Source: a phage | Assembly: GCA_030877765.1 (NCBI GenBank) | Contig: GCA_030877765.1_4853.1 | Direction: 5' to 3' (one strand) | Length of the DNA: 46,671 bases | Shown here: positions 1-46,671 of the stretch, piece by piece | Layout of the letters: each line of letters begins with the position of its first letter | Position numbering within the stretch: position 1 is the stretch's first letter | Notes under the pieces: model-generated | The model's database searches: none | What the model saw: only the letters and a program-made list of their open reading frames with translations | Told to the model about the DNA's origin: nothing | Made by a program: the position numbers and the translations under genes

Positions 1-1
1 C

Positions 2-1180
2 AACCTTATCAATGGGGTAGTGGCTAATAATCCTAAATATGCAGCGGTTGTTGCAGGCAAAGGTAGTGCCAACTTAATCTCAGATGTGCTTGTAGATTTC
101 TCAATCTCTGATGCTAGGCAGGCTCACGGTGTTACAGTAGAAGGTTCTGATAACGTCATAAATAATGTGCTTATGTCAGGATGTGATGGTACTAACTCTT
201 TAGGGCAAACTCAGACTGCTACAATTGCGCGCTTTATAGGTACAGCTAATAACAACTATGCGTCTGTATTTCCTAGCTACAGTGCTACAGGTGTTATTAC
301 TTTCGAATCAGGTTCTACCCGTAACTTCGTAGAGGTAAAGCATCCGGGAAGGAGAAACGACCTTCTCAGTACTGATAGTGCTATTAGCGGTGCAGATACT
401 ATTGACGGCACTAATAATAGCAACGTAGTGCACGCCCCTGCATTAGGGCAGTACATAGGCAGTATGTCCGGTAGGTTCGAATGGCGGATTAAGTCCATGT
501 CACTTCCGTCAGGCGTTCTTACCTCGGCTGATAAGTACAGAATGCTTGGGGATGGTGCTGTGTCATTAGCTGTAGGAGGGGGTACTTCTTCTCAAGTTCG
601 CCTATTTACTTCTAATGGTACTTATCGGACAGTATCACTCACCAACGGTAACGTGCGTCTTCCTACCAGTAGCACAGGTTATTTGCAGTTAGGTTCTGAT
701 GCAATGACCCCACATAGTACTAATACATACGCATTAGGTTCCGCAAGTAGAGCATGGTCTGGCGGTTTTACTCAATCAGCATTCACTGTTGTCTCAGATG
801 CTAGGGATAAAACAGAGCCTCTTAATATCTCAGATGCTTTACTGGATGCTTGGTCTGAAGTTGACTTTGTGCAGTTTCAGTACTTGGACCGAATTGAGGA
901 GAAGGGTGCAGACTCAGCTAGATGGCACTTCGGCATCATCGCTCAGCGAGCTAAGGAGGCATTCGAACGTCACGGTATAGATGCACATCGCTATGGCTTC
1001 CTGTGCTTCAACAGTTGGGATGATGTATACGAGGAAGATGCCAATGGCTCTCGTAAACTGATTACACCAGCAGGTTCCCGCTACGGTATTCGTTACGAGG
1101 AAGTACTGATATTAGAGGCTGCGTTGATGCGGCGTACTATTAAGCGTATGCAGGAAGCATTAGCTGTTATGTCTAAGTGA
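2..1180 (+). CDS. Tail fibre/tailspike, 3' portion (5'-truncated at window edge) with C-terminal intramolecular chaperone (peptidase S74-like) domain
   Basis: Reading frame is open from nt 2 with no upstream stop. C-terminal ~130 aa (SDARDKTEPLNISDALLDAWSEVDFVQFQYLDR...HFGIIAQRAKEAFERHGIDAHRYGFLCFNSWDD) matches the autoproteolytic chaperone domain of endosialidase/L-shaped tail fibres. Confidence 0.75.
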   Translation, partial: NLINGVVANNPKYAAVVAGKGSANLISDVLVDFSISDARQAHGVTVEGSDNVINNVLMSGCDGTNSLGQTQTATIARFIGTANNNYASVFPSYSATGVITFESGSTRNFVEVKHPGRRNDLLSTDSAISGADTIDGTNNSNVVHAPALGQYIGSMSGRFEWRIKSMSLPSGVLTSADKYRMLGDGAVSLAVGGGTSSQVRLFTSNGTYRTVSLTNGNVRLPTSSTGYLQLGSDAMTPHSTNTYALGSASRAWSGGFTQSAFTVVSDARDKTEPLNISDALLDAWSEVDFVQFQYLDRIEEKGADSARWHFGIIAQRAKEAFERHGIDAHRYGFLCFNSWDDVYEEDANGSRKLITPAGSRYGIRYEEVLILEAALMRRTIKRMQEALAVMSK

Positions 1181-1258: not shown

Positions 1259-1288
1259 AAAACCCCGCCCAGGCGGGGTTTGTTTTAT
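1259..1288. terminator. Bidirectional rho-independent terminator between tail fibre (+) and ssb (-)
   Basis: GC stem ccccgcc/ggcgggg with 3-nt loop, T-runs on both strands. Confidence 0.75.
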
Positions 1289-2858: not shown

Positions 2859-3803
2859 TTATAAATTAAACTGTTTTTTGAACCATTCAGGCGTTTCCAT
2901 TTCTATGACAGGATTACCCATTGAATAACCGGGCCACGAATTGGCTTTTTTGCACGCCTTGTAAATTTCCATAGCGCCATGCAACTGAATTCGACCGATG
3001 CGTAATTGCTCTTCAGTCAAGCGAATTAACGCAGGAATAAATGGTGCTTTCTTTTCCTGAACGAGAAGATTAACAGAGCGTGGCGCATGACCATATGCCG
3101 CAACAAACATGTCGTGCTGCATCGCCATTTTCATAAAGTACCCAAGTCTCGCAGCATGACGGAAAAACTCTTCTGGCTTGGCGCTCACCGCTGTTTTGTA
3201 GTCGATGATGTCGCCACCTTTGGTAAGGCAGTCAAAGCGAACTTTTGCCTTCTCTCCGTTAAGTTCACCTAGAATTGACACTTCAGCATAAGCACCAGCG
3301 AGAAGACTGCTGTAATAGCTGTTTGCGTGGATTACAGCACGCATTTGCTGAATAGCGTCATAATCACCACCTTCCAGCATTTGCTTTCCTACAGCAGCTT
3401 TTTCAGCCTCTTCACGGATGACATCGTAAATTTTCACTGGCTCGCCAGTCGCCTGGATGATTTTGATCACCTCAGCTTTCGACTTTCCTGAAAGTCCTTT
3501 GATGCCTCGTTCTTTTGCCCATGAGTTCATATCACTTACAGTAACAAGCAGGTCATCACCAAAATCTTCTTTGGTTGGCATTCGTGCATATTCAGCATCA
3601 AAACGCTCTGGTTCAAGCAACGCAGTATGGCTACCTGTACCGAATATAAGAGCTTTTGATTGCTCATCCTCTTCGTCTTTGTATCGCCATGCTGCCGGGC
3701 ATCTGTCAAGTATATTCCATAATCCAGAACCATTAATGTGCTCTGTGTCAGCATGATAATCCTGATTGCTTAATTCATTGTTGAAATAAACTCTCATCAT
3801 CAC
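2859..3803 (-). CDS. PD-(D/E)XK family nuclease (RecB/Cas4-like exonuclease)
   Basis: GGDIIDYKT motif with downstream acidic residues; same operon as ATPase and SSB as in phage recombination modules. Confidence 0.65.
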   Translation of the reverse strand: MMMRVYFNNELSNQDYHADTEHINGSGLWNILDRCPAAWRYKDEEDEQSKALIFGTGSHTALLEPERFDAEYARMPTKEDFGDDLLVTVSDMNSWAKERGIKGLSGKSKAEVIKIIQATGEPVKIYDVIREEAEKAAVGKQMLEGGDYDAIQQMRAVIHANSYYSSLLAGAYAEVSILGELNGEKAKVRFDCLTKGGDIIDYKTAVSAKPEEFFRHAARLGYFMKMAMQHDMFVAAYGHAPRSVNLLVQEKKAPFIPALIRLTEEQLRIGRIQLHGAMEIYKACKKANSWPGYSMGNPVIEMETPEWFKKQFNL

Positions 3804-4426
3804 TCTCCGTGGTTACAGAATTCTTTATGCATCTTTTCTCTGAATTTCATCACAGACAACCTCGCTCTCTCAATATCATTGAATAACCCAAGATGGTATC
3901 TTTTCCCGTTAACATCACAGTAAGCATGCCACTTTTTAACCTGTTTTTGCCAATACACACCTTTAACTCCTGATGTGTTATTTTTTGGTTTTTTAGCGTT
4001 ATACTGGTTCTGCATATTTGTTGCGATTCTTAAGTTGCAAATCCTGTTATCGTCACGCACACCGTTAATGTGATCAATTTGACCTTCAGGCCAGAAACCA
4101 TAATAAATCAACCATACCAAGCGATGCGCGTAGTATCTTTTATTATTTATGCTTATCTCTATGTATCCGTTATGTTTTTTCCTGCCAGCGACACTACCCT
4201 TTCTTACACCTCCACCCGTCTTATTTCTAATGAAAACCCCTGTTTCATGGTTGTAATTTAAGCTATCCAAAACAACATAACGTGGTATTCTTTTTCTTCT
4301 TCCTATGGTGTTTGACTCTGCACTTCCCTGAGCAAAATCTTGCTTTTGCAGTTCCGATAAACTCATTTCCACAAACCTCGCACTTCTTAACGGTGATAGC
4401 CATTTCTTACCCTCTATTGTAATCAT
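3800..4426 (-). CDS. HNH-AP2 homing endonuclease (paralog 1 of 4)
   Basis: AHRLVWLIYYGFWPEGQIDHINGVRDDNRICNLR (HNH) followed by NTSGVKGVYWQKQVKKWHAYCDVNGKRYHLGLF (AP2). Confidence 0.85.
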   Translation of the reverse strand: MITIEGKKWLSPLRSARFVEMSLSELQKQDFAQGSAESNTIGRRKRIPRYVVLDSLNYNHETGVFIRNKTGGGVRKGSVAGRKKHNGYIEISINNKRYYAHRLVWLIYYGFWPEGQIDHINGVRDDNRICNLRIATNMQNQYNAKKPKNNTSGVKGVYWQKQVKKWHAYCDVNGKRYHLGLFNDIERARLSVMKFREKMHKEFCNHGE

Positions 4427-8477: not shown

Positions 8478-8688
8478 AGGTGTCTTTGGATACCGCTCCG
8501 TCTTTAGCCAGCTTCATAAGAATTTTTCGCAAATCTGCCGAACGCCATTCTTCATCAGGAAATTCCTTCTCCATTGCCAACCGCAAATTCCATGTTGCTA
8601 TCCTGAATGGATATTCCCCGCCGAGAGCTTTCTCTTGCAGGGCAGCCCGGGAACGCATCACCTGCAAAACCTTCTCTTTTACATCCAT
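8425..8688 (-). CDS. Hypothetical protein (87 aa)
   Basis: ORF in operon orientation. Confidence 0.4.
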   Translation of the reverse strand: MDVKEKVLQVMRSRAALQEKALGGEYPFRIATWNLRLAMEKEFPDEEWRSADLRKILMKLAKDGAVSKDTYASRMVRRYGDWRRGNG

Positions 8689-8698
8689 TTCCTTACCC

Positions 8699-8890
8699 TC
8701 ACTTAATCATCAATTTTGAAATGTCAACATAACCAACAGAAAATCTGTGCCAGTAATCATCAAGTACGTGGTAATTAGATCGAATCCATACTTTGTTAAT
8801 CCCAGACCAGAAAAACCACGTCGAATAACCATACGGTCTGAAATTCCATGAGCCTTCTGAGCGGCAAAGTTCGCCTGATATTGTTATCAT
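8699..8890 (-). CDS. Hypothetical protein (63 aa)
   Basis: Short ORF in operon orientation, ATGA overlap with the upstream gene. Confidence 0.3.
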   Translation of the reverse strand: MITISGELCRSEGSWNFRPYGYSTWFFWSGINKVWIRSNYHVLDDYWHRFSVGYVDISKLMIK

Positions 8891-10443
8891 TTCAACCTCG
8901 GATTTATGTGAACAGTGTTTCCGATAAATACGCAGTAACCATCCTCTTCAAGTGATGGCAATACACTTGATCTGAGTCGGTCATAAATTTTAGGTATCCC
9001 TTTGAATGGTCGCACGTTTTTAAGTGAATCATAAAGCCACTTCACCGTTACGCTATTTTTCCCTTTCTGAGCGGCGGAGCGTAGTTTTTCGGCAACAACA
9101 TCAAACTCAGATCGTTCACCAGCATACCCATTTGATTCAACAGCATCAGTGAACGTTTTTGTCAGTGCGTCATAAACACTGATGGCGCGACTAATTTCAT
9201 TTTCACCGATAATCTTTGAACGCTTTCCTCCATCGCACCAGTTTTCAGCAGCGTGAAATATTGCTGCCAGACGTATTATTTGCTTATCAGCTTTACCCAT
9301 CGCGCCACGAAGAAGAACGTGGTCCCACTTACCGCCGGGAAGGAAGTTTTTCTCCCACTGATTTCGTAACAGGCCGATCATTCTTGCTGAGTCATTGTGA
9401 AGCGTCAGTTTTGTTTTTTCTGCTGACACAACATTATGTATAAATCTTGCATATTCCGACCTCAAGCTGTCTGGCATTGGCTTGCTTACAGGGCAATCAT
9501 TAACCATGTCCCAGTGTTCGCGATAGCCAAGCATTGATTGCTCTCGCAACATCAGGAAACGTTCAGAAAGACCGTTCCCCCTGTCGCCAGCGGCAAGAAT
9601 GGCATCAATACTTTCATCCTGCGCAATCACACTTATGTTTCCAAGCACGTAACCAGATGAAACGCCACGACCAACACGAGCAGAGCCAATGAATCCGCCA
9701 TCCCATCCCTTCAGGATGACTTCGGCGTTTGCCTTTCCACCTTCCTTTCCGTAAGAGAGGCCAAGACATGTGTTAAGAACGCTTGCCTCGTCACTTATCA
9801 GATTAAAAAAGCCACCTTCATGGATTGCCTGATGCTGAACAGCCTCCGGCGTTGCGTCAGTAAGTGGGTATGTAATCGTATAAAGCTCTTCCAGCTTCTC
9901 CTTTTCCCGAGCAATATCGTCGCCGATTAGTGCCTTTGCATTCTGATTGCTGGCCTCTTTATATGCCTTCATCAATTCTTCAATGCGAAGATTTATTTTT
10001 ATGATCTGCTTTTCCATCTTTTTGGAAAGGTTGTCATATTCAATCTTCACCGGATTCATGTGCATTGAGTTGATAGCGGTTTTCCCTGCTGATGGAGGCT
10101 GAGAAGTAACCACGTAAAGAGAAACTGGAAGCTCTGAATGGTAATACTCAACGCTAAAGTTTCTCGTCATTGCGCTGGCGACGCAACCAAGTAAATGCAT
10201 GAACGATGTATTTATTGGGAACTGAACTGCGCGAGCTGCAGCGATTGCATAACGAGACAGCAAATCAGTCCTGTGCTCACTGGTCAGTTCTGTTTCTGAA
10301 TACGTTACATCACGCTCCTTACCTTCCTTGATGTCCAGCCACATATTTGAGCTTGGTATCATGCCATAATGGAAGGCAACGCGAGCCGGAGATACTTTCA
10401 ATTCCCTTGCTTCGTTGAAGATGTCTTGAGCTGTGATCATCAT
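8887..10443 (-). CDS. Large replication-associated protein with P-loop (possibly DUF3987-like primase/helicase-associated)
   Basis: 518 aa, first large gene of the leftward operon next to the iteron region; P-loop-like SQPPSAGKT. Family assignment is uncertain. Confidence 0.55.
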   Translation of the reverse strand: MMITAQDIFNEARELKVSPARVAFHYGMIPSSNMWLDIKEGKERDVTYSETELTSEHRTDLLSRYAIAAARAVQFPINTSFMHLLGCVASAMTRNFSVEYYHSELPVSLYVVTSQPPSAGKTAINSMHMNPVKIEYDNLSKKMEKQIIKINLRIEELMKAYKEASNQNAKALIGDDIAREKEKLEELYTITYPLTDATPEAVQHQAIHEGGFFNLISDEASVLNTCLGLSYGKEGGKANAEVILKGWDGGFIGSARVGRGVSSGYVLGNISVIAQDESIDAILAAGDRGNGLSERFLMLREQSMLGYREHWDMVNDCPVSKPMPDSLRSEYARFIHNVVSAEKTKLTLHNDSARMIGLLRNQWEKNFLPGGKWDHVLLRGAMGKADKQIIRLAAIFHAAENWCDGGKRSKIIGENEISRAISVYDALTKTFTDAVESNGYAGERSEFDVVAEKLRSAAQKGKNSVTVKWLYDSLKNVRPFKGIPKIYDRLRSSVLPSLEEDGYCVFIGNTVHINPRLK

Positions 10444-10679
10444 GAAATCCTTTTTACGTAAACCATGTCTTTATCAGGGTATCCAACCTTTGTTGAGAAT
10501 TTCATTCCTTCATTCCTGCGCATGAAGTAGTTTAATGCGTTCCTCAGGTTTGCAATTCCTCCAAACCTCTTCGAGTTAATCATCACAGTCTCACCTACTG
10601 AAACCGCCGACAACCCAGAAAGAGCTGCATTCTTTTTGCCGTACTTGTCAAGTTTCACAAAAGCCTCCAACAGCAACAA
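10440..10679 (-). CDS. Small hypothetical protein (N-terminus uncertain; likely the 47-aa product from internal ATG near 10583)
   Basis: Track ORF begins at a TTG; internal ATG (MINSKRFGG...) has a GGTGA RBS. Confidence 0.3.
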   Translation of the reverse strand: MLLLEAFVKLDKYGKKNAALSGLSAVSVGETVMINSKRFGGIANLRNALNYFMRRNEGMKFSTKVGYPDKDMVYVKRIS

Positions 10680-10730
10680 ATTATAATTGAATCATATCAT
10701 AACTATTGAATCATGCAACATCAAATACGA

Positions 10731-11040
10731 CTCACGTGGGTAGCGTGGGGAAGCCGTGGGGAACATCACCTTCCCCACGAAGTTTCACTCTAAGTATATG
10801 TAATATAATATAATTATTATTATTTGGGTTAATGGGTAATATTATTATTCATATTATAGATAGTAATTAACATAATATTAACAAATGGATTATTTGAATA
10901 TATTTATAAGGGGATGGGTATGAAATCTTCCCCTTTTTACCCACGAAAAATAAAAACATTAAAATCAATTATTTACGATGAAAAACGTGGGGCAACTGAC
11001 CTTCCCCACGGCTTCCCCACGGGTAAAAATTTACCCCACG
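10731..11040. repeat. Iteron array flanking an AT-rich core (candidate origin/operator region)
   Basis: About nine copies of (T)YCCCCACG(G) or its complement CGTGGGG in both orientations at 10732-10779, 10939-10946 and 10986-11040, either side of a ~140-bp AT-rich stretch (10795-10935). Confidence 0.7.
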
Positions 11041-27050: not shown

Positions 27051-27208
27051 TTTAATCAGGAGGTAGCCCATGAACACAATCCCTATCACCTACTTTCTCA
27101 CGCTATACGCACTCACCAATTCGCCATTGTTTGCACTGGCTACCGCCTCGTGGTGCTATATCTCCCTGTGTTATAATTCGACCACAAACTAACCGTGGAG
27201 AGTTAACC

Positions 27209-29091
<1,883 letters not shown>

Positions 29092-29102: not shown

Positions 29103-30176
29103 ATGGAAAAGATTATTTTTACCAAAGACTTGGTAGCCAACTCCGCAGTGGTGGCTGACCAGTGGAAACATCTCACCATCGACCGCAAGGTGTTCTGCAA
29201 TGCAGAAGCTGAACTGGCGAAAACATACGGTGTTAACGCCACCGCGCTGGTAACGAAAGATTACTGGCGCGACGTGGATAACGTCACCACCCGTGTTTTC
29301 CGCAACGAAGCTGGCCAGGACATGATGGCTGACCTGATGGGTATCGCGGCAAACATTAACATTGGTAAGACTGTGGCAATCAGCCGCATTGCTTCCGATG
29401 CTGGCAAGGTAGTCCGCACTCTGTCTGGTCAGGAGCCGGAAGACTTGGATAAAACTCGCTACGATTACACTGGCGACGTGATTCCAATCTTCAAAACTGG
29501 CTACAGCCGCGAATGGCGCGAACTGCTGGGTATGCAGTCTGAAGGTTTTGACCCCCTGCTGGACGATCAGGCTAACGTCACCTTTAACCTACGTTCCGAC
29601 ATGGCGCAGTATCTGCTGACCGGCGACCAGACTCTGAACGTGAACGGCGTTTACACTGGCTACGGTATCACCAACCACCCGAACACCATTCAGGTCAACC
29701 TGAACATTCACGATGGCGGCCTGAATATCGACCTGCAAACCGCAACGCCAGATGAAATCGTGAAATTCTTCAATCAGGATTTCCAGGCTATTCTGGATGC
29801 GCAGAACGTATTTGAGCAGGTGACTCTGTGGGTTTCCCCGGCAGTGCGTCGCAGTTTCATGCGTCCGTATTCTAATGCGGCTGGCTTCAAAGGCGGCACG
29901 GTTGAGCAGTACATCACGCAGTTCGGTAATGGTCGCATTGGTAAGATTGGCACCAACTTCCTGCTGACTGGCAACCATTTCGTTGGTTACGTTCGCAATG
30001 ACATGTACATCCGTCCGCGTGTTGCTCAGCCTGTCTCCACCTATGCGGCAGCTCGCACCAACCCGCACGATAACTTTAACTTCCTCGTATGGTCTGCTTT
30101 CGGTCTGCAGATTCGCAAGGATGCCGCTGGAAAAAGCCGCGTCTTTAATGGCTATGGTAGCCAGGAAGCTAAATAA
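29103..30176 (+). CDS. Major capsid protein
   Basis: 357 aa, strong RBS, followed by a strong terminator; lambda E-like position and size. Confidence 0.65.
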   Translation: MEKIIFTKDLVANSAVVADQWKHLTIDRKVFCNAEAELAKTYGVNATALVTKDYWRDVDNVTTRVFRNEAGQDMMADLMGIAANINIGKTVAISRIASDAGKVVRTLSGQEPEDLDKTRYDYTGDVIPIFKTGYSREWRELLGMQSEGFDPLLDDQANVTFNLRSDMAQYLLTGDQTLNVNGVYTGYGITNHPNTIQVNLNIHDGGLNIDLQTATPDEIVKFFNQDFQAILDAQNVFEQVTLWVSPAVRRSFMRPYSNAAGFKGGTVEQYITQFGNGRIGKIGTNFLLTGNHFVGYVRNDMYIRPRVAQPVSTYAAARTNPHDNFNFLVWSAFGLQIRKDAAGKSRVFNGYGSQEAK

Positions 30177-32967: not shown

Positions 32968-33777
32968 TCACATCTTCTCCAGAATTGCCATAACCTCGTG
33001 AATGTCAGCAACAGGAATCTGAATAAATTCCTCATCCTCTGCCACCACATGACCAGCAGGGAGAATTACATGGTCAGCTGGCTTCAGTAACTCAATCAGG
33101 CGGTCTACTGGCTTAATCTTTTTCGACTTCAGCACTTTGGCTGTGACCTTATCCTTGCCTTGCGCCTTCGCTTCTTCGACCGCTTCGTCGATAACTTTTA
33201 CCGCATCATCTCCATGTTCGCGCGTTACCGCTACGGCATTTGCATAGCTGATCTGTCCGGCACTGATTCGCGCTTTTACTTCCGCAGGCACATCACCCAA
33301 CGACAGGTGCATTTGCACGTCAGATACTGAGCGGCCTACCTTCTTGGCGATTTCCTCGTTTGTCCAGCCAAAACCTTTCAGACGCGTGTAAGCCTTTGCG
33401 CGTTCAAACGGGTCAAGTTGCTTGCCCTGACTTGATGACACCATGAATGCGATTTTGTCAGCCTCGTCGCCAGTAAAATCCTTACACTCAATGCGAACGA
33501 TTGGTGCGCCGCGCTCAATGGCTCGCAATGCGCCGAGGTAGCGATGCTGCCCATCAAGAATGCGGATACCTTTATCGTCAGGAATAACTGTTAATGCTGG
33601 CAATGGCTGACCTGACTCCCAGCACTGCGCGAAATATTCCACATGCTGCTCATCTGCTTCACGGATGTTGTATCCCGGCTCCAGATAGATTTGCTCTACT
33701 GGCACGAGGTAGGTTTTGTTAACAGCGATACCGTTACGCGTTTCTTTGTCTGAATAGATTTTGCTTAGTGTTTTCAT
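32968..33777 (-). CDS. ParB N-terminal domain (ParB/Srx-like) nuclease-type protein
   Basis: ILDGQHRYLGALRA motif; central HTH-like segment (EEIAKKVGRSVSDVQ). Confidence 0.7.
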   Translation of the reverse strand: MKTLSKIYSDKETRNGIAVNKTYLVPVEQIYLEPGYNIREADEQHVEYFAQCWESGQPLPALTVIPDDKGIRILDGQHRYLGALRAIERGAPIVRIECKDFTGDEADKIAFMVSSSQGKQLDPFERAKAYTRLKGFGWTNEEIAKKVGRSVSDVQMHLSLGDVPAEVKARISAGQISYANAVAVTREHGDDAVKVIDEAVEEAKAQGKDKVTAKVLKSKKIKPVDRLIELLKPADHVILPAGHVVAEDEEFIQIPVADIHEVMAILEKM

Positions 33778-35824: not shown

Positions 35825-36222
35825 TGCCAGCGAAATTAAGAGGCGTCCGACAGGCCGTAGAGAGAACATCGCAGATTGTGGATGAGATAATCGCCACGAA
35901 AGCTGTGCGTGCAATTAAGTCAGCGACATACATCATCCGCACCGAATCAGCCACGCTAACGCCAATTGATACATCAACGCTAATTAACAGTCAGTTTGAT
36001 ACCGTGGAAGTTAGCGGAACGCGAATCACTGGCAAGGTTGGCTACTCTGCAAAATATGCACTGTACGTCCACAATGCCAGCGGTAAACTTGCAGGGAAAC
36101 CGCGCAGCAACGGCAACGGCACGTATTGGTCGCCGGGTGGTGAACCACAATTCCTGACCAAAGCAGCGCAACGCACAAAAGACCTTGTTGATAGCGTGAT
36201 TAAGAAGGAGATGACACTCTAA
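35824..36222 (+). CDS. Putative tail completion protein
   Basis: 132 aa; position and size. Confidence 0.45.
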   Translation: MPAKLRGVRQAVERTSQIVDEIIATKAVRAIKSATYIIRTESATLTPIDTSTLINSQFDTVEVSGTRITGKVGYSAKYALYVHNASGKLAGKPRSNGNGTYWSPGGEPQFLTKAAQRTKDLVDSVIKKEMTL

Positions 36223-36596
36223 TGAATATGCTTGAACTGGTTGATGCATATCTTCAGGATGCAGGATTGTACGATGGCTGGACTTCGCAGCTGCAGTTCT
36301 GGAATGACACCGGAGATGGAAGTGAGCAATTTATTGTTCTGCAATCCAACGGTGGCACTCAGGTTATGGATGGCCTCGGCGGTGACTTCTATTTTTCGCT
36401 GTATGTTGTTGGCAAACAAGGCCAATACAATGTTGCTGATGTTGATTCGAAGGCCAATGAGATTATCGAATACATCAAAACACACCCGATTGATTCATGC
36501 GTTAACTACATCCAGTTGCAAGCGCCACTTGGCAGGGCAATGCTGACGGAAGAAAAAAGACCAGTGCATGAACTGCTATTACGTGTTGTGAAATAA
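36222..36596 (+). CDS. Putative tail terminator protein
   Basis: 124 aa; immediately before the major tail region. Confidence 0.45.
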   Translation: MNMLELVDAYLQDAGLYDGWTSQLQFWNDTGDGSEQFIVLQSNGGTQVMDGLGGDFYFSLYVVGKQGQYNVADVDSKANEIIEYIKTHPIDSCVNYIQLQAPLGRAMLTEEKRPVHELLLRVVK

Positions 36597-36597
36597 A

Positions 36598-36624
36598 TAA
36601 AGCCGCATGAAGCGGCTTTTAATT
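36598..36624. terminator. Bidirectional terminator
   Basis: Stem agccgc/gcggct with 5-nt loop; T-runs on both strands. Confidence 0.75.
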
Positions 36625-36701
36625 TGGTGGACACGGACGGATTTGAACCTTCAATCAGCCGATTATTAGTCGGTTGCTTTAACCAATTAAGCTACGCGTC
36701 C
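36625..36701 (-). tRNA. tRNA-like gene (77 nt including encoded CCA); apparent anticodon AAU
   Basis: Minus strand folds by eye: 7-bp acceptor stem with one G-U, D-arm GCTT/AAGC, anticodon stem-loop with loop CTAATAA, T-loop GGTTCAAATCC, discriminator A plus CCA. One mismatch each in anticodon and T stems. Confidence 0.55.
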
Positions 36702-37199
36702 ATAAGTGCTGGTTTAAGCATTGCCAGCGTGCTTTCTTAACATCCAGCCCCGTAACCCATACATACCCCTACATATGATTGCGATAATGCTGGATATTAA
36801 GTGTTGTGGTGGCCGGTGCTGATCTCCGGCATAAGGCGCTTATTCGGCGGCGTCGAGCTTGCTTATTCGCTTGAGCCATCCTCGTGAGTCAGCCACGTCC
36901 CACTGCGCATCAGCCTGCGCATTCACCACAACGGAAAGAGCACTGATGCGCTCACTTGGGACTCCTTAGCCATAACCCACGGGCTTCTGGTACACCAATG
37001 CTCTTACCTGTTGTGTTCCCTGACTTATTAATCACACCTCAGGGACGCAGTGCGCCGAATTTGTTTACAAGGAATCGGAAGACCTTGCTGACTTACAGGC
37101 TATTACGCCGCCATCAGAACAACATCATCGTTTGCATTTATCTTTGTGGTCAGTTTCTAAAAAGTCCGCAAAGTCGCTCACGAAAACTATCTGAAATAC

Positions 37200-37243
37200 A
37201 ATCTACACCACAAAATAATCGCTGTCAACACCTGTGATATAAT
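37200..37243. promoter_or_regulatory. Divergent promoter pair: leftward into the non-coding locus, rightward for the major tail gene
   Basis: Minus strand TTGACA (37228-37223), 17 bp, TAGATT (37205-37200); plus strand extended -10 TGaTATAAT (37235-37243). Confidence 0.6.
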
Positions 37244-37279
37244 CACCACGTTAGCAGCTAACACAATTCGGAGATCGAA

Positions 37280-37999
37280 ATGGCTATTTGTGCAAATGAT
37301 AAAGGCGTTCTGGTCGGTCGCATGACCCGACTGTTCCTTGCTGAAGGGTGCGGCGACGCAGTTCCGGATGCAGGCGACTGGAAGTATTTAGGCTCAACCA
37401 CCAGTAAAGGCGTTGACTACTCGCCGCAGACCACTACGTCGGAAGCGGATACCGCTGGCGGCTTTGTTTCTACTCTCGTTACCAGCTCTGATATGACCAT
37501 CAGTGCAGAGGTAGAAATCCGCAAGAATGACCCGAGCGATGAGTTTGGCTTCCATCGTCTTGTTGAGATTTACACCACTGAACTGAAGGCTCGCCGCCAG
37601 CCTTCCTTGTGGGTGCGTCAGGTGACTGGTGCAACTATCGTTACCGCGTATTGCAACATCACCAGCATCAGCTACGAAGGTGGCACGAACGATATCGTTA
37701 CTGGTAGCCTTGAGTTTAAGGTTTACGATTCTGACAGCGTTACCGTAGAAAGCCTTGAACCTCTGGCATTCACTACCGACCTGCAATCAACTGGCACGGC
37801 CGGAATCCCGTTAACCGTTGCTGTTGAAGGTGGCGTTGATCCTTACACTTATGTATGGCGCAAAGATGGCGCAGTTGTTGATGGTGAGTCTGGCGCATCT
37901 CTGGCAAGCCCTACCGCTGGCGTGCATACCGTCACGGTAACTGATTCATCTACCGACCCGGAAATTATCATCAGCACGGCGTGCACGGTATCCCGATAA
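37280..37999 (+). CDS. Major tail protein with C-terminal Ig-like domain
   Basis: 239 aa, GGAG RBS; Thr/Val-rich Ig-like C-terminus as in lambda V; followed by a strong terminator. Confidence 0.7.
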   Translation: MAICANDKGVLVGRMTRLFLAEGCGDAVPDAGDWKYLGSTTSKGVDYSPQTTTSEADTAGGFVSTLVTSSDMTISAEVEIRKNDPSDEFGFHRLVEIYTTELKARRQPSLWVRQVTGATIVTAYCNITSISYEGGTNDIVTGSLEFKVYDSDSVTVESLEPLAFTTDLQSTGTAGIPLTVAVEGGVDPYTYVWRKDGAVVDGESGASLASPTAGVHTVTVTDSSTDPEIIISTACTVSR

Positions 38000-38004
38000 A
38001 GAAA

Positions 38005-38030
38005 AGCCCCGAAAGGGGCTTTGTTTTATT
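38005..38030. terminator. Bidirectional terminator
   Basis: Stem agcccc/ggggct with gaaa loop, TTGTTTTATT. Confidence 0.8.
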
Positions 38031-38226
38031 CTTGTGGTGGTTCTGGCGGATTGGCCCAGTGGGTAGCTGGAATTCCGTGACAGCAGTCCAATTCACTAAC
38101 AAATATCTTGCTGCCAATATTATCGACAGCTTTACATACCGCAGTTCTAACAACACCGCGAAATGCTGTAAGAACCATCGTTCCTTCTTCTGGCATTCGC
38201 TCACTACACTTAATCCACTGGCTCAT
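38026..38226 (-). CDS. DUF551-like protein
   Basis: MSQWIKCSERMPEEGTMVL matches the DUF551 N-terminal signature. Confidence 0.55.
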   Translation of the reverse strand: MSQWIKCSERMPEEGTMVLTAFRGVVRTAVCKAVDNIGSKIFVSELDCCHGIPATHWANPPEPPQE

Positions 38227-38366
38227 ATCACCTTGTCCTCATCAAAAATCACGCCAATAACGCGAAGTAAGTCTTTCGCCATGCGTTCCGCTTCCTCGTA
38301 GTCGTAACCTGCATCAACATACAAATCAGTGTAGAAAATCAGGTCAGCTTTTGTTTGTTCGTTCAT
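38223..38366 (-). CDS. Small acidic protein (47 aa)
   Basis: ATGA overlaps at both ends with the Imm-like and DUF551-like genes. Confidence 0.3.
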   Translation of the reverse strand: MNEQTKADLIFYTDLYVDAGYDYEEAERMAKDLLRVIGVIFDEDKVI

Positions 38367-38557
38367 TTCTTGTCGCCACTGTTAACTAATGCCCAAACAA
38401 GTGCCGCAACCCATCCAATAAAGCTCCACCCGACAAGAATATTCAGTACACAGATTGCTGTCGTGTTTGTGTGCTTGCGTTGCAAAGCCACAAATGATGG
38501 AAGAAGATAAACAAATATAACCAATCCAGCAAAAAGCAACAAAATAACAACATCCAT
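38363..38557 (-). CDS. Superinfection immunity (Imm-like) small membrane protein
   Basis: Two TM helices; LPSFVALQRKHTN...LNILVGWSFIGWVAALVWAL matches the Imm superinfection-immunity family pattern. Confidence 0.6.
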   Translation of the reverse strand: MDVVILLLFAGLVIFVYLLPSFVALQRKHTNTTAICVLNILVGWSFIGWVAALVWALVNSGDKK

Positions 38558-38592
38558 AACTCACCTCATTCATATCTCGTTTCGATGATTTG

Positions 38593-38641
38593 AATCTACA
38601 TCACCACCTCGCAGGTGTCAACACTACTGAGATGATATAAT
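38593..38641. promoter_or_regulatory. Divergent promoter pair: leftward for the Imm cassette, rightward for the tail assembly genes
   Basis: Minus strand TTGACA (38621-38616), 17 bp, TAGATT (38598-38593); plus strand extended -10 TGaTATAAT (38633-38641). Confidence 0.6.
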
Positions 38642-38670
38642 CAACATCAGTCAAATTCAGGATGCAAAAC

Positions 38671-39408
38671 ATGAGCAATCGCACGCCACTAACAGAAATC
38701 GGGGAGATGCGCATCTCGCTTTCTGACAGGAGTTTTTTCTTTAAGCCATCATTCCGTGCCATGAATGAAATTGGCACGCCAAAAGAAATCGTCGAGGTAT
38801 ACGCTAAGCTCAATGGCATTGATTATATTGCGCCGTTGCAGCACGTCGAATACCTGCCATTTGGCGCGCAGATGCAGGTTATGAAGACCATCAGCAAACC
38901 TGTGTATGGTCGCCATGTACTGAGCGCAGCCTATATCGTCATGCAATCATGCTGTGAAGATGATATTTCTGTGCTGATTGGTGGATGGAAGCCAACACCG
39001 CGCGGTGTGCGATACGTGCCGGGAGTAATGCCAATTGGCGGCACTGGACATTTGCCAGGTGGAACAGGTGGAATTATTGAGATTGCCCGCTCATTAATGG
39101 AGCACGGCATTATTGGCAAATCACCACTCAAAGTGCCTGAGCGTCTGGAAGAGCAGGGTAAGAAAACCACAAATGAGTTTCATGCGTCGCAATACATCAT
39201 CTCAGCGCGCACGCATTTCGACATGACGCGTGATGAGGCCGAAAACCTGTCCATGACAGAGTTTCAGATGATGATTAAAAATAAATATCCAGAGCCGAAA
39301 GGGTTAACGAAAGAAGAGCGCGCGGCAGAGTACGATCAGGCTAAAGCAGACCGTGAGCGCATGAAGGCACTGGCTGAACGCAAAGCGAAAAAAGCGAGGA
39401 ATACATAA
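38671..39408 (+). CDS. Putative tail assembly chaperone
   Basis: Immediately upstream of the tape measure gene; AGGA RBS; Lys/Glu-rich C-terminus. Confidence 0.5.
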   Translation: MSNRTPLTEIGEMRISLSDRSFFFKPSFRAMNEIGTPKEIVEVYAKLNGIDYIAPLQHVEYLPFGAQMQVMKTISKPVYGRHVLSAAYIVMQSCCEDDISVLIGGWKPTPRGVRYVPGVMPIGGTGHLPGGTGGIIEIARSLMEHGIIGKSPLKVPERLEEQGKKTTNEFHASQYIISARTHFDMTRDEAENLSMTEFQMMIKNKYPEPKGLTKEERAAEYDQAKADRERMKALAERKAKKARNT

Positions 39409-41782
39409 TGGCTGAAGAAGTCGGCGGAATTGTCTATGAAGTCGGGATGGATGTTAAAGGCCTGAAGGCTGGCGCGACAACAGCCAATAAGACTTTAGAT
39501 GACCTTGAATCATCAACCAACAAAACCACAAGCGCCCTTGGCAAGCTGGATAAAAACGCCAGAAATGCTGGCAGCGGAATGAAAAATGCTGGCGGCGCAG
39601 CTTCAGGGCTAAAAACGCAGATGACGGCTCTTGCTGGCGCAATATCCGTGTCACTGATTATCGAATGGGGAAAGCGATTCCTTGATGTTGCCGATAACAT
39701 GACACAACTTCAGGCAAGGATTGCTCGCTTGTCAACTGATGCGAAAACCGCGAACGAAACATTCAGTACACTGGCAAATATCGCCTCGACCACTGGCGCA
39801 AGTCTCAGCGACACCACGAAGCTGTGGGAAACATTGACGTCATCACTGAAAGAGGCTGGCGCGACAAATGCGCAGGTTCTTAACCTTACTGACACTCTGC
39901 AAAAGATAGGACGAATCGGCGGGTCATCAACAGAAGAAATGGCGAACGCCCTGCGTCAGTTCGGTCAGTCAATTGCTTCTGGCACAATCCGCGCCGAAGA
40001 ATTTAACTCCATCCTTGAACAGATGCCTGAACTTGCGCGCCAGATTGCAGCTGGACTTGGCATTTCAATGGGCGAACTTCGCGCCAGAATGCTTGACGGA
40101 AAGCTGACGGCAGAAGATGCACTGAATGCCATTCAGGACAGGACAAGCATCGTCAATGCTGAGTTTGAAAAACTTCCTCGCACAATGGATCAGGCCGTTG
40201 GTTCTCTTGAAGTTTCATTCTCCAAACTTGTGGTTGCCGTTAACGATGCCACTGGCGCATCAAAAACAGTAGTAGAGATTATCGACCAGCTGGCAAAATA
40301 CATTGATTTCCTCGGCGACAAATCAACCAGCACGAGCGACAAGATTCTATCTCTCGCCACGGTTATCTCGAAGCTAAACCCAGGCGCATGGGCACAAATG
40401 GGGGTTGATGCGCTTTTCGGTGATGATGATATTGAGAAGCAAAAACAATATAACGATCAAGTCGAGCGATTCGTTAAGGCTTCAAAAGAAGGTTACGAGC
40501 AGACAAAGAAACAGGCTGAAGCAACAAAACACCTGAAGATTGCACAAGCACCAACCAAAGACAAGAAAGGCAAAGGAAAGGGCAAAAGCGCCGAAGAACG
40601 GCAAGCTGAGTCAGTTGCTGAAAAGCTGGAGAAATTACGCCAGCAAACCATGCTTAATGCCACATCTACCAGCGAACTCTCCCGCGATCAAGCCATCCTC
40701 AACGCGCAGCAATCGCTTGGCAAGGCTGCCACTCAGGAACAAATAAAACTGGCTGGCGAGTACGCTGCGAAGATTTGGGACCAGAGAAACGCGCTGAAGG
40801 AGCAGGCAGCAGCTGAGAAAGAAAAGCAGCGCGTAGAAAAATCATATCAGGGGTTGCGCGCCATTGCGTCACCAACATCTGGCATTGATAGTGAATACCA
40901 GCAACGCATGGCTGACCTTGACGCCTACGCCGCAGCATATCCACAAAAAATCACGGAGATTGAGCAGACTCGCGCAGCAATTGAGGCACAGTACCGCCAG
41001 CAGAGAATGGACGCCATGTGGGCTGAATGGCAGCAGCAAAGCCTCGGGGCGCAATTGTTCGGCACGGCGCTTGATTCAGCGATGAGTACAGCATCAAACA
41101 GCATCACTGGATTGCTCACAGGCACAATGAGCGTTCAGGATGCAATGCGCAGCCTCGGCTCTACGGTGCTGAATTCTCTGGTAAACAGCTTTGTTGAAAT
41201 GGGCGTTCAGTGGGTTAAATCCGCCGTTATGGGGCAGACTGCGCAGGTTGCGGCAACAGCTACCACCACAGCGGCGCAAACGGCAGGACTCGCAACCACA
41301 ACAGCAGCATCAACTGCAGCGGCAGCAACCACTACCGCAGCATGGACTCCAGCGGCAATCGTAGCATCAATCGGTTCATTCGGCGGGGCGGCTGCAATTG
41401 GTGTAGGTGCTGTTCTCGGGGCACTGGCAATGGGTATCGCTGGCAAGCGAAAAAATGGCGGCTCAGTTAGCGCCGGAAGTATGTACGAAGTGGGCGAAAA
41501 TGGCTTGCCTGAAATATTCCAGGCGTCCAACGGTCGCCAGTATATGATTCCCGGCAACGATGGCTCAGTTATCAGCAACAAAGACATTACCGGAAGTGGC
41601 AGTGGCGTTGTGGTTTATAATAACGTGATAAATAACAGCTCTGCTCAGGTTAGCAGCAGTGCCAGAGATAATGGTGATGGCAGTGTGACGATTGAGACTA
41701 TCGTTAGTGATATCGAAAACAACGGCCCTATCGGGCAAAGCATTGGAAGAAACTACTCAGCAAGCCGGAGGGCAACTGAATA

Positions 41783-41783
<1 letters not shown>
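39408..41783 (+). CDS. Tail tape measure protein
   Basis: 791 aa, long Ala/Gln/Glu-rich helical regions, Thr/Ala-rich segment, Gly-rich putative TM segment. Confidence 0.9.
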
Positions 41784-45587
<3,804 letters not shown>

Positions 45588-45626
45588 TACAATATACATC
45601 AAATTCACAAAGGAGCATTTATTATA

Positions 45627-46671
45627 ATGGCTACCACACCAACCAATAAACCAATTCCGTCAGAAGACCCGCGCGACCTGAAGTTTAATGCTGGTAAAAT
45701 TGACGAAGTTGTCAACTCTGACAATCACTACTACACCGATCGCTTTGGTCATCGCCGCTTTACAATTGCAGGATTCCAACACACCGCAGAAGAAGCAATT
45801 CGTAACTATGGCTACATCACAATGGATAGCTTCGAGGATGGCGCGACGCTGACGTTACCGAATCAGGTTTTGCGCTATGAAGCTACTGGAGAATATTACC
45901 GCTGGGATGGTGAATTCCCTAAAACAGTCGCTTCTGGTTCAGCTCCTGCATCCGCTGGCGGTGTTGGAATTGGGAAATGGTTGAGTGTTGGTGATGCAGC
46001 CCTGCGCAGCCAGATTTCAGACCCGGATGGTGCGTCCAGTTACCCTGAATTGCAGATGGCAAGATGGCGTGATGAGGGTGATGTTCGAGGCTGGGGTGCT
46101 AAAGGGGATGGTGTAACGGATAGTACGGAGAATATAGCTGCTTCACTAAATTCTCAAAAAGCTGTCGTAGCATCAGACGGTGTATTCTCTAGTTCTGGTA
46201 TTAATAGTAATTACTGTAACTTAGACGGTAGAGGCAGTGGTGTACTAAGTCACCGTTCAAGTACAGGTAACTACTTAGTATTTAACAATCTACGCTCAGG
46301 TCGCTTAAGTAATATTACGGTAGAAAGTAATAAGGCGACCGATACCACTCAAGGGCAGCAGGTATCTCTTGCTGGTGGTAGTGATGTTACTATAAGTGAT
46401 GTTAATTTCTCAAACGTTAAGGGCATTGGTTTCAGTTTAATCACATACCCTAATAATGCACCCTCTGATGGGCTTATGATTAAAGGCATTCGAGGTAGCT
46501 ACTCCGGCTATGCTACTAATAAGGCGGCTGGATGCATACTTGCTGATTCCTCGGTTAACTCCCTCATAAATAACGTCATTGCTAAGCACTACCCTCAGTT
46601 CGGGGCTGTAGAACTGAAAGGTACAGCCAGTTATAACATAGTCAGCAATGTTATAGGGGCAGACTGCCAGC
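45627..46671 (+). CDS. Tailspike/tail fibre, 5' portion (3'-truncated at window edge) with right-handed beta-helix repeats
   Basis: ATG 45627 with AGGAG RBS; frame open to the window end; Asn/Ser/Gly-rich repeats typical of tailspike beta-helix. Confidence 0.7.
   Translation, partial: MATTPTNKPIPSEDPRDLKFNAGKIDEVVNSDNHYYTDRFGHRRFTIAGFQHTAEEAIRNYGYITMDSFEDGATLTLPNQVLRYEATGEYYRWDGEFPKTVASGSAPASAGGVGIGKWLSVGDAALRSQISDPDGASSYPELQMARWRDEGDVRGWGAKGDGVTDSTENIAASLNSQKAVVASDGVFSSSGINSNYCNLDGRGSGVLSHRSSTGNYLVFNNLRSGRLSNITVESNKATDTTQGQQVSLAGGSDVTISDVNFSNVKGIGFSLITYPNNAPSDGLMIKGIRGSYSGYATNKAAGCILADSSVNSLINNVIAKHYPQFGAVELKGTASYNIVSNVIGADCQ

Follow-up and report, generated by a model that had tools for sequence, protein, structure and literature searches.

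A KflA-type K5 lyase tailspike predicted from the two ends of a siphophage genome

Each end of a phage contig (GenBank assembly GCA_030877765.1, contig GCA_030877765.1_4853.1) holds part of an open reading frame that runs off the sequence, which raises the question of whether the two parts belong to one gene. The whole stretch of 46,671 nt that was analyzed is referred to here as the window. At its left edge, frame +2 contains no stop codon from nt 2 until 1178-1180, a total of 392 codons. A listed ORF places the start of this frame at a GTG (20-1180), but this is only the first start codon found mechanically, and the frame enters from outside the window. At the right edge, 348 codons on the plus strand run from an ATG at 45627 off the window at 46671. 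This ATG sits 39 nt past the stop of an 829-aa tail gene, and the start, MATTPTNKPIPSE, is also used by the homologues in Bas81 and HC6. The initial annotation had described a tail fibre with a self-cleaving C-terminal chaperone domain on the left and the beginning of a second, beta-helix tailspike on the right. It left two readings standing: one depolymerase-type gene split by the window boundary, or two receptor-binding proteins in addition to a J-like tail tip. Features of the locus are listed in Table 1.

Continuity of the gene across the window ends

An exact-protein look-up of the 829-aa tail hub returned a single public contig, Logan DRR387780_20 (46,744 bp). This contig encodes an identical hub, and the next ORF, intact and 755 aa long, contains Tail_spike_N and Peptidase_S74 domains. 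Past the tailspike, the opposite strand holds SSB, AAA_24, DUF3799 and HNH. The first 1,045 nt of the 755-aa ORF match window positions 45627-46671 at 100%, the last 1,180 nt match positions 1-1180 at 100%, and no difference occurs among the 14,447 bases that the Logan locus shares with the window. In the Logan contig, an extra 43 nt (aa 349-363, HVTYNGTVGSIAPSN) separate window positions 46671 and 1. The join is in frame, with one leftover base, the 43 nt and one leading base making up 15 codons. In the one-gene reading, the sequence across the window ends, as taken from the identical contig, would be ...CAGC-ATGTAACTTACAACGGTACAGTAGGGTCAATAGCTCCCTCTAA-CAACC.... The initial annotation had called for flanking sequence, and that of the identical contig shows the same gene continuing rather than unrelated genes.

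The 43-nt spacing is not specific to the Logan contig. Megablast of each edge returned the same genes in the same phages. In the record of phage UE-S5b, the right-edge match ends at 10864 and the left-edge match begins at 10908, both within a single CDS annotated as “K5 lyase”. The spacing between the two matches is 43 nt in UE-S5b, vB_EcoP-R1, PDP21P1 and IME177, and the 30 nt flanking the gap on each side are the same in the window and UE-S5b. A further 7 contigs of 30-48 kb, from metagenome or SRA data, encode the 755-aa protein at 94-99% identity. A gene order of hub, single tailspike and then opposite-strand SSB, AAA_24 and exonuclease is common to Bas81, HC6 and IME207. Joining the window ends directly was considered and rejected, as only 2 nt would then separate the last full codon from the first, breaking the reading frame, and the references show the 43-nt gap. 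A search for direct overlap between the window ends, either a terminal repeat or an assembly k-mer, found none.

The window edges are thus very probably the halves of one 2,268-nt gene, which would encode a 755-aa tailspike with an Sf11-type anchor, a KflA-type lyase and an S74 chaperone in an Sf11/Swiduovirus-like siphophage. The left-edge frame supplies its C-terminal 392 aa and the right-edge frame its N-terminal 348 aa. Because the Logan contig joins both edges in one ORF and the shared bases are identical, the window is, judged from this alignment, a circular permutation of a genome of about 46.7 kb, cut inside the tailspike gene and without the 43 nt. Given the identical contig, the gene is presumably intact in the window's own molecule. 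Adding 43 nt to the 46,671 nt of the window gives 46,714 nt, and the 30 nt by which the contig is longer could be explained by a k-1 overlap in a circular assembly. The split-gene reading of the initial annotation is therefore the one borne out by an intact 755-aa ORF.

Table 1. Features of the tailspike gene and neighboring tail genes in the window
Feature	Position (nt)	Strand	Basis
Remaining beta-helix and C-terminal intertwined triple-beta-helix stalk of predicted tailspike, aa 363 (last base only)-627	1..793	+	PDB 2x3h
Peptidase_S74 intramolecular chaperone domain, aa 628-755 and stop codon	794..1180	+	PF13884; Ser628 at nt 794-796, Lys633 at nt 809-811
G+C-rich hairpin terminator between convergent tailspike and SSB genes	1260..1281	.	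Terminator scan
Distal tail protein homologue, 157 aa, with adaptor helix	41783..42256	+	Sf11 gp17 (9occ_C) alignment
Baseplate hub/TipJ-related tail tip protein of 829 aa, next gene upstream of tailspike	43098..45587	+	PDB 9occ_E, NF040662
Shine-Dalgarno-like AAGGAG	45610..45615	+	Read from sequence; 11 nt upstream of tailspike ATG
N-terminal helices predicted to dock trimer on distal tail protein adaptor helix, tailspike aa 1-59	45627..45803	+	Sf11 gp13 alignment
Tail_spike_N, tailspike aa 63-123	45813..45995	+	Pfam PF18668, E 1.3e-16; ends in YYRWDG...WLSVGDAALR
First part of predicted K5 lyase right-handed beta-helix, tailspike aa 155-349 (last codon incomplete), including E329-L-K331	46089..46671	+	PDB 2x3h

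The lyase module and its substrate

The predicted precursor has 755 aa and a mass of 80.6 kDa. The initial annotation's view of the right-edge fragment as the start of a beta-helix tailspike holds, with a PF18668 match and homology to the beta-helix of the K5 lyase KflA from aa 155 (nt 46089). In Pfam, this fragment matched a pectate-lyase-like beta-helix family only weakly, below threshold. Solved structures gave a much clearer result. The KflA chain 2x3h_A aligns with aa 155-628 without gaps (E 5e-276), with 433 of the 474 residues identical (91.4%) and therefore 41 substitutions. A second chain, 9vvr_A (“Tail spike protein”, 843 aa), aligns with aa 61-755 (E 0) and is near-identical over this range, including the linker, lyase and chaperone, whereas its first ~148 residues differ from the anchor found here. 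A literature search for a paper describing PDB 9vvr found none. Solved structures with more than 90% identity thus cover aa 61-755, and chance similarity is ruled out since the E-values against these structures range from 0 to about 1e-276.

GenBank labels the matching genes in phages K5, K1-5, UE-S5b and ULINTec7 as K5 lyase. Judged by homology, the catalytic part of the tailspike is a KflA-type K5 (heparosan) lyase. Its specificity is probably also for K5, given that it is 91% identical to KflA and that the genes of phages K5 and K1-5 are annotated as K5 lyases. Residues ~155-627 would bind the E. coli K5 capsule (heparosan, -4-GlcA-beta1,4-GlcNAc-alpha1-) and cleave it by beta-elimination. 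The initial annotation had named capsule or O-antigen as the target, and the KflA-type module points to capsule. Its term “tail fibre” was imprecise, as the protein is better described as a tailspike with a predicted KflA-type K5 heparosan lyase, not an endosialidase, as its catalytic part. An endosialidase tailspike was rejected after Pfam gave no sialidase family match and the K1F endosialidase structure 3gw6 aligned only over the stalk and chaperone (aa 561-750).

The catalytic residues of KflA were reportedly proposed by Thompson and colleagues in 2010 to be Glu206, Lys208 and Tyr229. We take these to correspond to E329, K331 and Y352 of the tailspike, which are E243, K245 and Y266 in the SEQRES of the deposited chain, a constant offset of 37. 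This offset between the published numbering and the deposited chain would fit an expression tag. A full-text literature search for the KflA catalytic residue numbers returned unrelated papers only. None of E329, K331 and Y352 is among the 41 positions substituted compared to 2x3h. The 43 nt that the window lacks include the codon for Y352, which was seen only in Logan DRR387780_20, so that the presumed active site straddles the window boundary.

Another possible explanation is that the gene encodes a single KflA-fold tailspike that has lost K5 heparosan as its substrate, the spike instead acting on a related acidic capsule or O-antigen or binding without cleavage. Some of the 41 substitutions could lie in the substrate groove, same-size proteins from metagenome-assembled genomes (MAGs) are named only “pectate lyase superfamily protein”, and Pantoea eucrina is given as the source of one protein in the same 90% cluster. 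Against such a shift, the module is 91-97% identical to the “K5 lyase” genes of phages such as K5 and K1-5, which were isolated on K5 strains or shown to use them, and the E-L-K and V-T-Y-N motifs, presumably catalytic in KflA-type lyases, are unchanged. A change in tailspike specificity is also usually accompanied by far greater divergence of the beta-helix. A shift away from K5 is possible but unlikely at this identity, and we give it only a slim chance.

The chaperone domain and attachment to the virion

The initial annotation had placed a C-terminal chaperone domain of about 130 aa at the left edge, starting near nt 780, and a profile search found it with small adjustments: it starts at nt 794 and has 127-128 aa. 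Peptidase_S74 (PF13884, “chaperone of endosialidase”) matches residues 265-325 of the fragment, nt 794-976, with an E-value of 1.9e-14 and 54.1 bits, where the cut-off for this family is 22 bits. The C-terminal domain also aligns with the chaperone domains of the GA-1 neck appendage (PDB 3gud, E 1.2e-21) and the K1F endosialidase (PDB 3gw6, E 3.4e-19), as well as with T5 pb1 (PDB 4uw8, E 1.7e-8). In all three of these proteins, Peptidase_S74 follows a triple-beta-helix and has a Ser with a Lys at +5, as it does here. The catalytic part of the K1F endosialidase is a sialidase beta-propeller, in contrast to the predicted lyase beta-helix of this tailspike.

The predicted cleavage motif is S628-D-A-R-D-K633, and Ser628 and Lys633 are invariant in the 8 contigs. 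The same Ser/Lys(+5) arrangement is found in T5 pb1 (Ser1264/Lys1269) and the K1F endosialidase (PMC4690869). T5 pb1 has a folding-sensor residue, Arg1250, from the neighboring subunit, 14 residues before the Ser; Arg613 in the tailspike lies 15 residues before Ser628. The assignment of the left-edge domain to the endosialidase type of self-cleaving intramolecular chaperone, made in the initial annotation, agrees with the PF13884, 3gud and 3gw6 matches and with this dyad. The domain would nucleate trimerization of the stalk and then remove itself by autoproteolysis dependent on Ser628 and Lys633. Release at Ser628 after trimerization is suggested by conservation of the motif and by the precedent of KflA and endoNF, and the predicted products are a mature subunit of ~66 kDa and a released domain of ~14.7 kDa.

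Alternatively, the C-terminal domain could be kept in the mature spike, either as a non-cleaving relic or as a receptor-binding tip. The residue preceding Ser628 is Val instead of the Thr of KflA and T5 pb1, and cleavage of this protein is a prediction. However, Ser628 and Lys633 have the canonical spacing, the upstream Arg613 is present, and the chaperone is near-identical to that of the K5 lyases in UE-S5b and 9vvr. The last residue of the crystallized KflA chain (2x3h) is the Ser that corresponds to S628, and reviews report that the mature form of the K1-5 K5 lyase is smaller than its precursor (PMC5380687). With an intact Ser/Lys dyad, retention of an uncleaved domain is unlikely, and we consider it less probable still than a change of substrate.

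At the other end of the tailspike, aa 1-135 align with gp13, the tailspike of the Shigella siphophage Sf11 (PDB 9occ_G; E 1.7e-71, and 3.6e-69 with the full protein as query). In the cryo-EM structure of Sf11, one gp17 adaptor helix bundles with three gp13 N-terminal helices (residues 4-59), six gp13 trimers are carried on the tail tip, and gp17 Glu129, Glu136, Glu147 and Glu152 form salt bridges with gp13 Arg16 and Lys19 (PMC12724387). Both Arg16 and Lys19 are identical in the tailspike. The gene that comes right after the tape measure gene encodes the 157-aa homologue of gp17, the Sf11 distal tail protein, and matches its residues 1-155 (9occ_C, E 1.4e-99). It keeps E129, E136 and E147 and has Asp in place of E152. 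Since the salt-bridge residues are conserved in both the tailspike and the distal tail protein (with Asp at 152), Sf11-like docking is the best-supported proposal for how the spike is attached. The N-terminal helices of the anchor (aa 1-135) would pack into a bundle with the distal tail protein's adaptor helix, and six spike trimers would dock around the tail tip on the distal tail protein ring, by analogy with Sf11. The 829-aa protein matches Sf11 gp14 (baseplate hub 2, PDB 9occ_E) over its full length (E 0) and the TipJ-related family NF040662 in NCBIfam (E 5e-134), so that calling it a J-like tip was fair.

The anchor, the full-length gp14 hub, the adaptor-helix region and the gene order are therefore shared with Sf11. 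The catalytic part of the Sf11 spike, in contrast, is an Sf6/P22-like O-antigen endorhamnosidase with no S74 chaperone domain, in place of the lyase and S74 domain found here. Sf11 gp17 also has an additional C-terminal appendage of ~300 aa that is absent from the distal tail protein of the window; due to this absence, the architecture of the tail tip may differ in detail from that of Sf11. KflA of coliphage K5A and ORF46 of K1-5 share the beta-helix, triple-beta-helix stalk, chaperone domain and cleavage-site Ser of the tailspike, but their N-terminal ~150 residues are unrelated to it. The K5 and K1-5 spikes use a short peptide that binds a podophage adaptor protein, whereas the window encodes an Sf11-type helical anchor and Tail_spike_N.

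Two separate receptor-binding proteins, a left-edge fibre with the chaperone and a right-edge beta-helix tailspike separated by further genes beyond the window, have next to no chance of being correct: continuity is not visible from the window alone, its ends do not overlap, and K1-5 and UE-S5b are examples of phages with two spikes, but the identical contig, for which this reading is refuted, joins the fragments through only 43 in-frame nt, a single ORF is seen in each of the 7 additional contigs and in every reference K5 lyase gene, both fragments cover consecutive parts of the single chains 9vvr and 2x3h, and relatives carry a single spike flanked by the window's own neighbor genes. The “second tailspike” of the initial annotation loses its support as well. 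Only one gene, that of the 755-aa protein, is present, and a scan of the tail-module ORFs plus ten more of the larger ORFs turned up no further depolymerase- or fibre-like protein.

Mosaic origin of the tailspike gene and its meaning

The genome backbone is closest to the E. coli siphophages HC6, 6947 and HC8A (98.5%, replication region) and to Salmonella phage ST1UNAM, with Swiduovirus swi2, Shuimuvirus IME207 and Sf11 as further relatives. DNA identity within the tailspike gene changes with the phage group. Siphophage relatives match nt 1 to ~372 at 82-85%, the Kayfunavirus (T7-like) group matches from nt 261 at ~92-93%, the N4-like UE-S5b group matches from nt 347 to the stop codon at 97.3%, and Vectrevirus (K5, K1-5; SP6-like) matches from nt 498 at ~92%. 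The segment YYRWDG...W(L/V)SVGDAxLR at the end of Tail_spike_N is common to all lineages. Because the similarity of different phage groups covers different parts of the gene, the 5' crossover is placed by these alignments in this segment. Past the tailspike stop codon, similarity to UE-S5b continues to ~nt 1289, and similarity to the siphophage backbone reaches back to nt 1259-1260. The terminator hairpin between these genes is aligned in the window, UE-S5b and HC6, though not in Bas81, and the 3' crossover of the lyase module appears to lie at this hairpin.

The closest DNA relative of the module is the K5 lyase of the N4-like Gamaleyavirus phages UE-S5b, UE-M6, UE-S5a and UE-M3. These lyases differ from the tailspike in having another N-terminal anchor and a length of 785 aa (755 here), and they are found in 74-kb genomes with an adjacent endosialidase gene and other downstream genes than in the window. 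No single record in INPHARED (August 2025) spans the siphophage anchor together with the lyase. The 755-aa chimera is present in NCBI nr as unannotated entries for gut MAG proteins, “MAG: pectate lyase superfamily protein [Bacteriophage sp.]”, and it was also found on phage-sized contigs in E. coli isolate assemblies. A search of complete E. coli genomes for prophage or plasmid copies of the chimera gave no match, and a literature search for a siphophage K5 lyase returned nothing specific. A known kind of protein, the KflA-type K5 lyase tailspike with an S74 domain, is found here on a siphophage chassis, a combination undescribed among isolate phages. This may be the first recognized K5-capsule-specific siphophage, with a plug-and-play spike cassette that has spread across N4-, T7- and SP6-like podophages and Sf11-like siphophages by recombining at two fixed joints, the linker and the hairpin; we regard the chances of this broader proposal as about even.

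The predicted host is E. coli with a K5 heparosan capsule, which occurs on uropathogenic strains and on the probiotic Nissle 1917. The virion would tunnel through the K5 capsule, after which the TipJ-like hub would engage the outer membrane. The locus is also an example of an annotation trap, in which a genome linearized within its tailspike gene mimics two receptor-binding proteins. Finding a K5 lyase in a siphophage leaves the current understanding of tailspikes unchanged, and its value is modest, lying in the host prediction and in an example of cassette exchange at defined joints. The carriers of K5 lyase known so far are podophages, which are now joined by a siphophage. With its defined crossovers and a structurally characterized Sf11-type adaptor, this tailspike would be a plausible scaffold for depolymerase-module swaps in engineered phages.

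The 3′ boundary of the lyase cassette and the tail-tip genes

The features discussed here are collected in the table below. On its 3′ side, the exchanged lyase cassette ends at a hairpin terminator, which is common to the window, the N4-like phage UE-S5b and the siphophage HC6.

Among the tail-tip genes, the homologue of the distal tail protein shares the tailspike adaptor helix with gp17 of the Shigella siphophage Sf11, but it is without the large C-terminal appendage of that protein. The start of the hub gene is overlapped by about 90 nt by the NlpC/P60-type minor tail protein ORF. The hub itself is named differently between sources, as either a ‘MoaD/ThiS family protein’ or ‘TipJ family’.

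In the record of phage ZG49 (KX669227.5 / NC_047777.1), 752 nt separate the matches to the two parts of the lyase gene, compared to 43 nt in Logan contig DRR387780_20 and in reference K5 lyase genes, and two places in the record match the lyase gene. Together, these observations suggest that the ZG49 record contains an internal duplication or was rearranged during assembly.

Features of the window
Feature	Position	Strand	Remarks
Hairpin terminator	1260-1281		Between convergent tailspike and SSB genes
HNH endonuclease	3800-4426	-	Replication module; HNH_3 and weak AP2 match in the gene call of the Logan contig
497-aa protein	27131-28624	+	phrog_760 member
357-aa ORF	29103-30176		Putative major capsid gene (our assumption)
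ParB-HTH/KorB-like protein	32968-33777	-	Among structural genes
tRNA-Ile, anticodon AAT	36625-36701	-	Sole tRNA gene
Distal tail protein homologue, 157 aa	41783-42256	+	Match to residues 1-155 of Sf11 gp17 (457 aa)
NlpC/P60-type minor tail protein ORF	42602-43189	+	
Hub gene	43098-45587	+	

Accessory genes and the 497-aa protein

The HNH endonuclease and the ParB-HTH/KorB-like protein are probably mobile or regulatory accessories. The anticodon of the tRNA-Ile is unusual, and a tRNA-Ile is annotated in the same region of the siphophage relatives HC6 and 6947.

The gene for the 497-aa protein is found a short distance upstream of the ORF that we take to encode the major capsid protein, and the 497-aa protein had no matches in Pfam or the PDB. 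Relatives carry a protein annotated as ‘fibritin/neck whiskers’ somewhere within the matched 10.7-kb region (36000-46671), which excludes the 497-aa ORF.

Occurrence of the phage and its tailspike elsewhere

A 751-aa ‘tail fiber domain-containing protein’ (WP_322544265.1) falls within the 90%-identity cluster of the tailspike (8530-10794 of the Logan contig). The protein, from an 11-kb contig, is assigned to Pantoea eucrina, a host label that is unexpected for a K5 lyase.

None of 5,426 complete E. coli genomes matched the phage genome. The same genome, seen in Logan DRR387780_20 and GCA_021146965.1, is present in gut virome MAGs, and E. coli isolate assemblies contain it as contigs of approximately 46-48 kb (TPA proteins HDT4190350.1 and HBM2232711.1). 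This pattern could reflect a carrier state or culture contamination.
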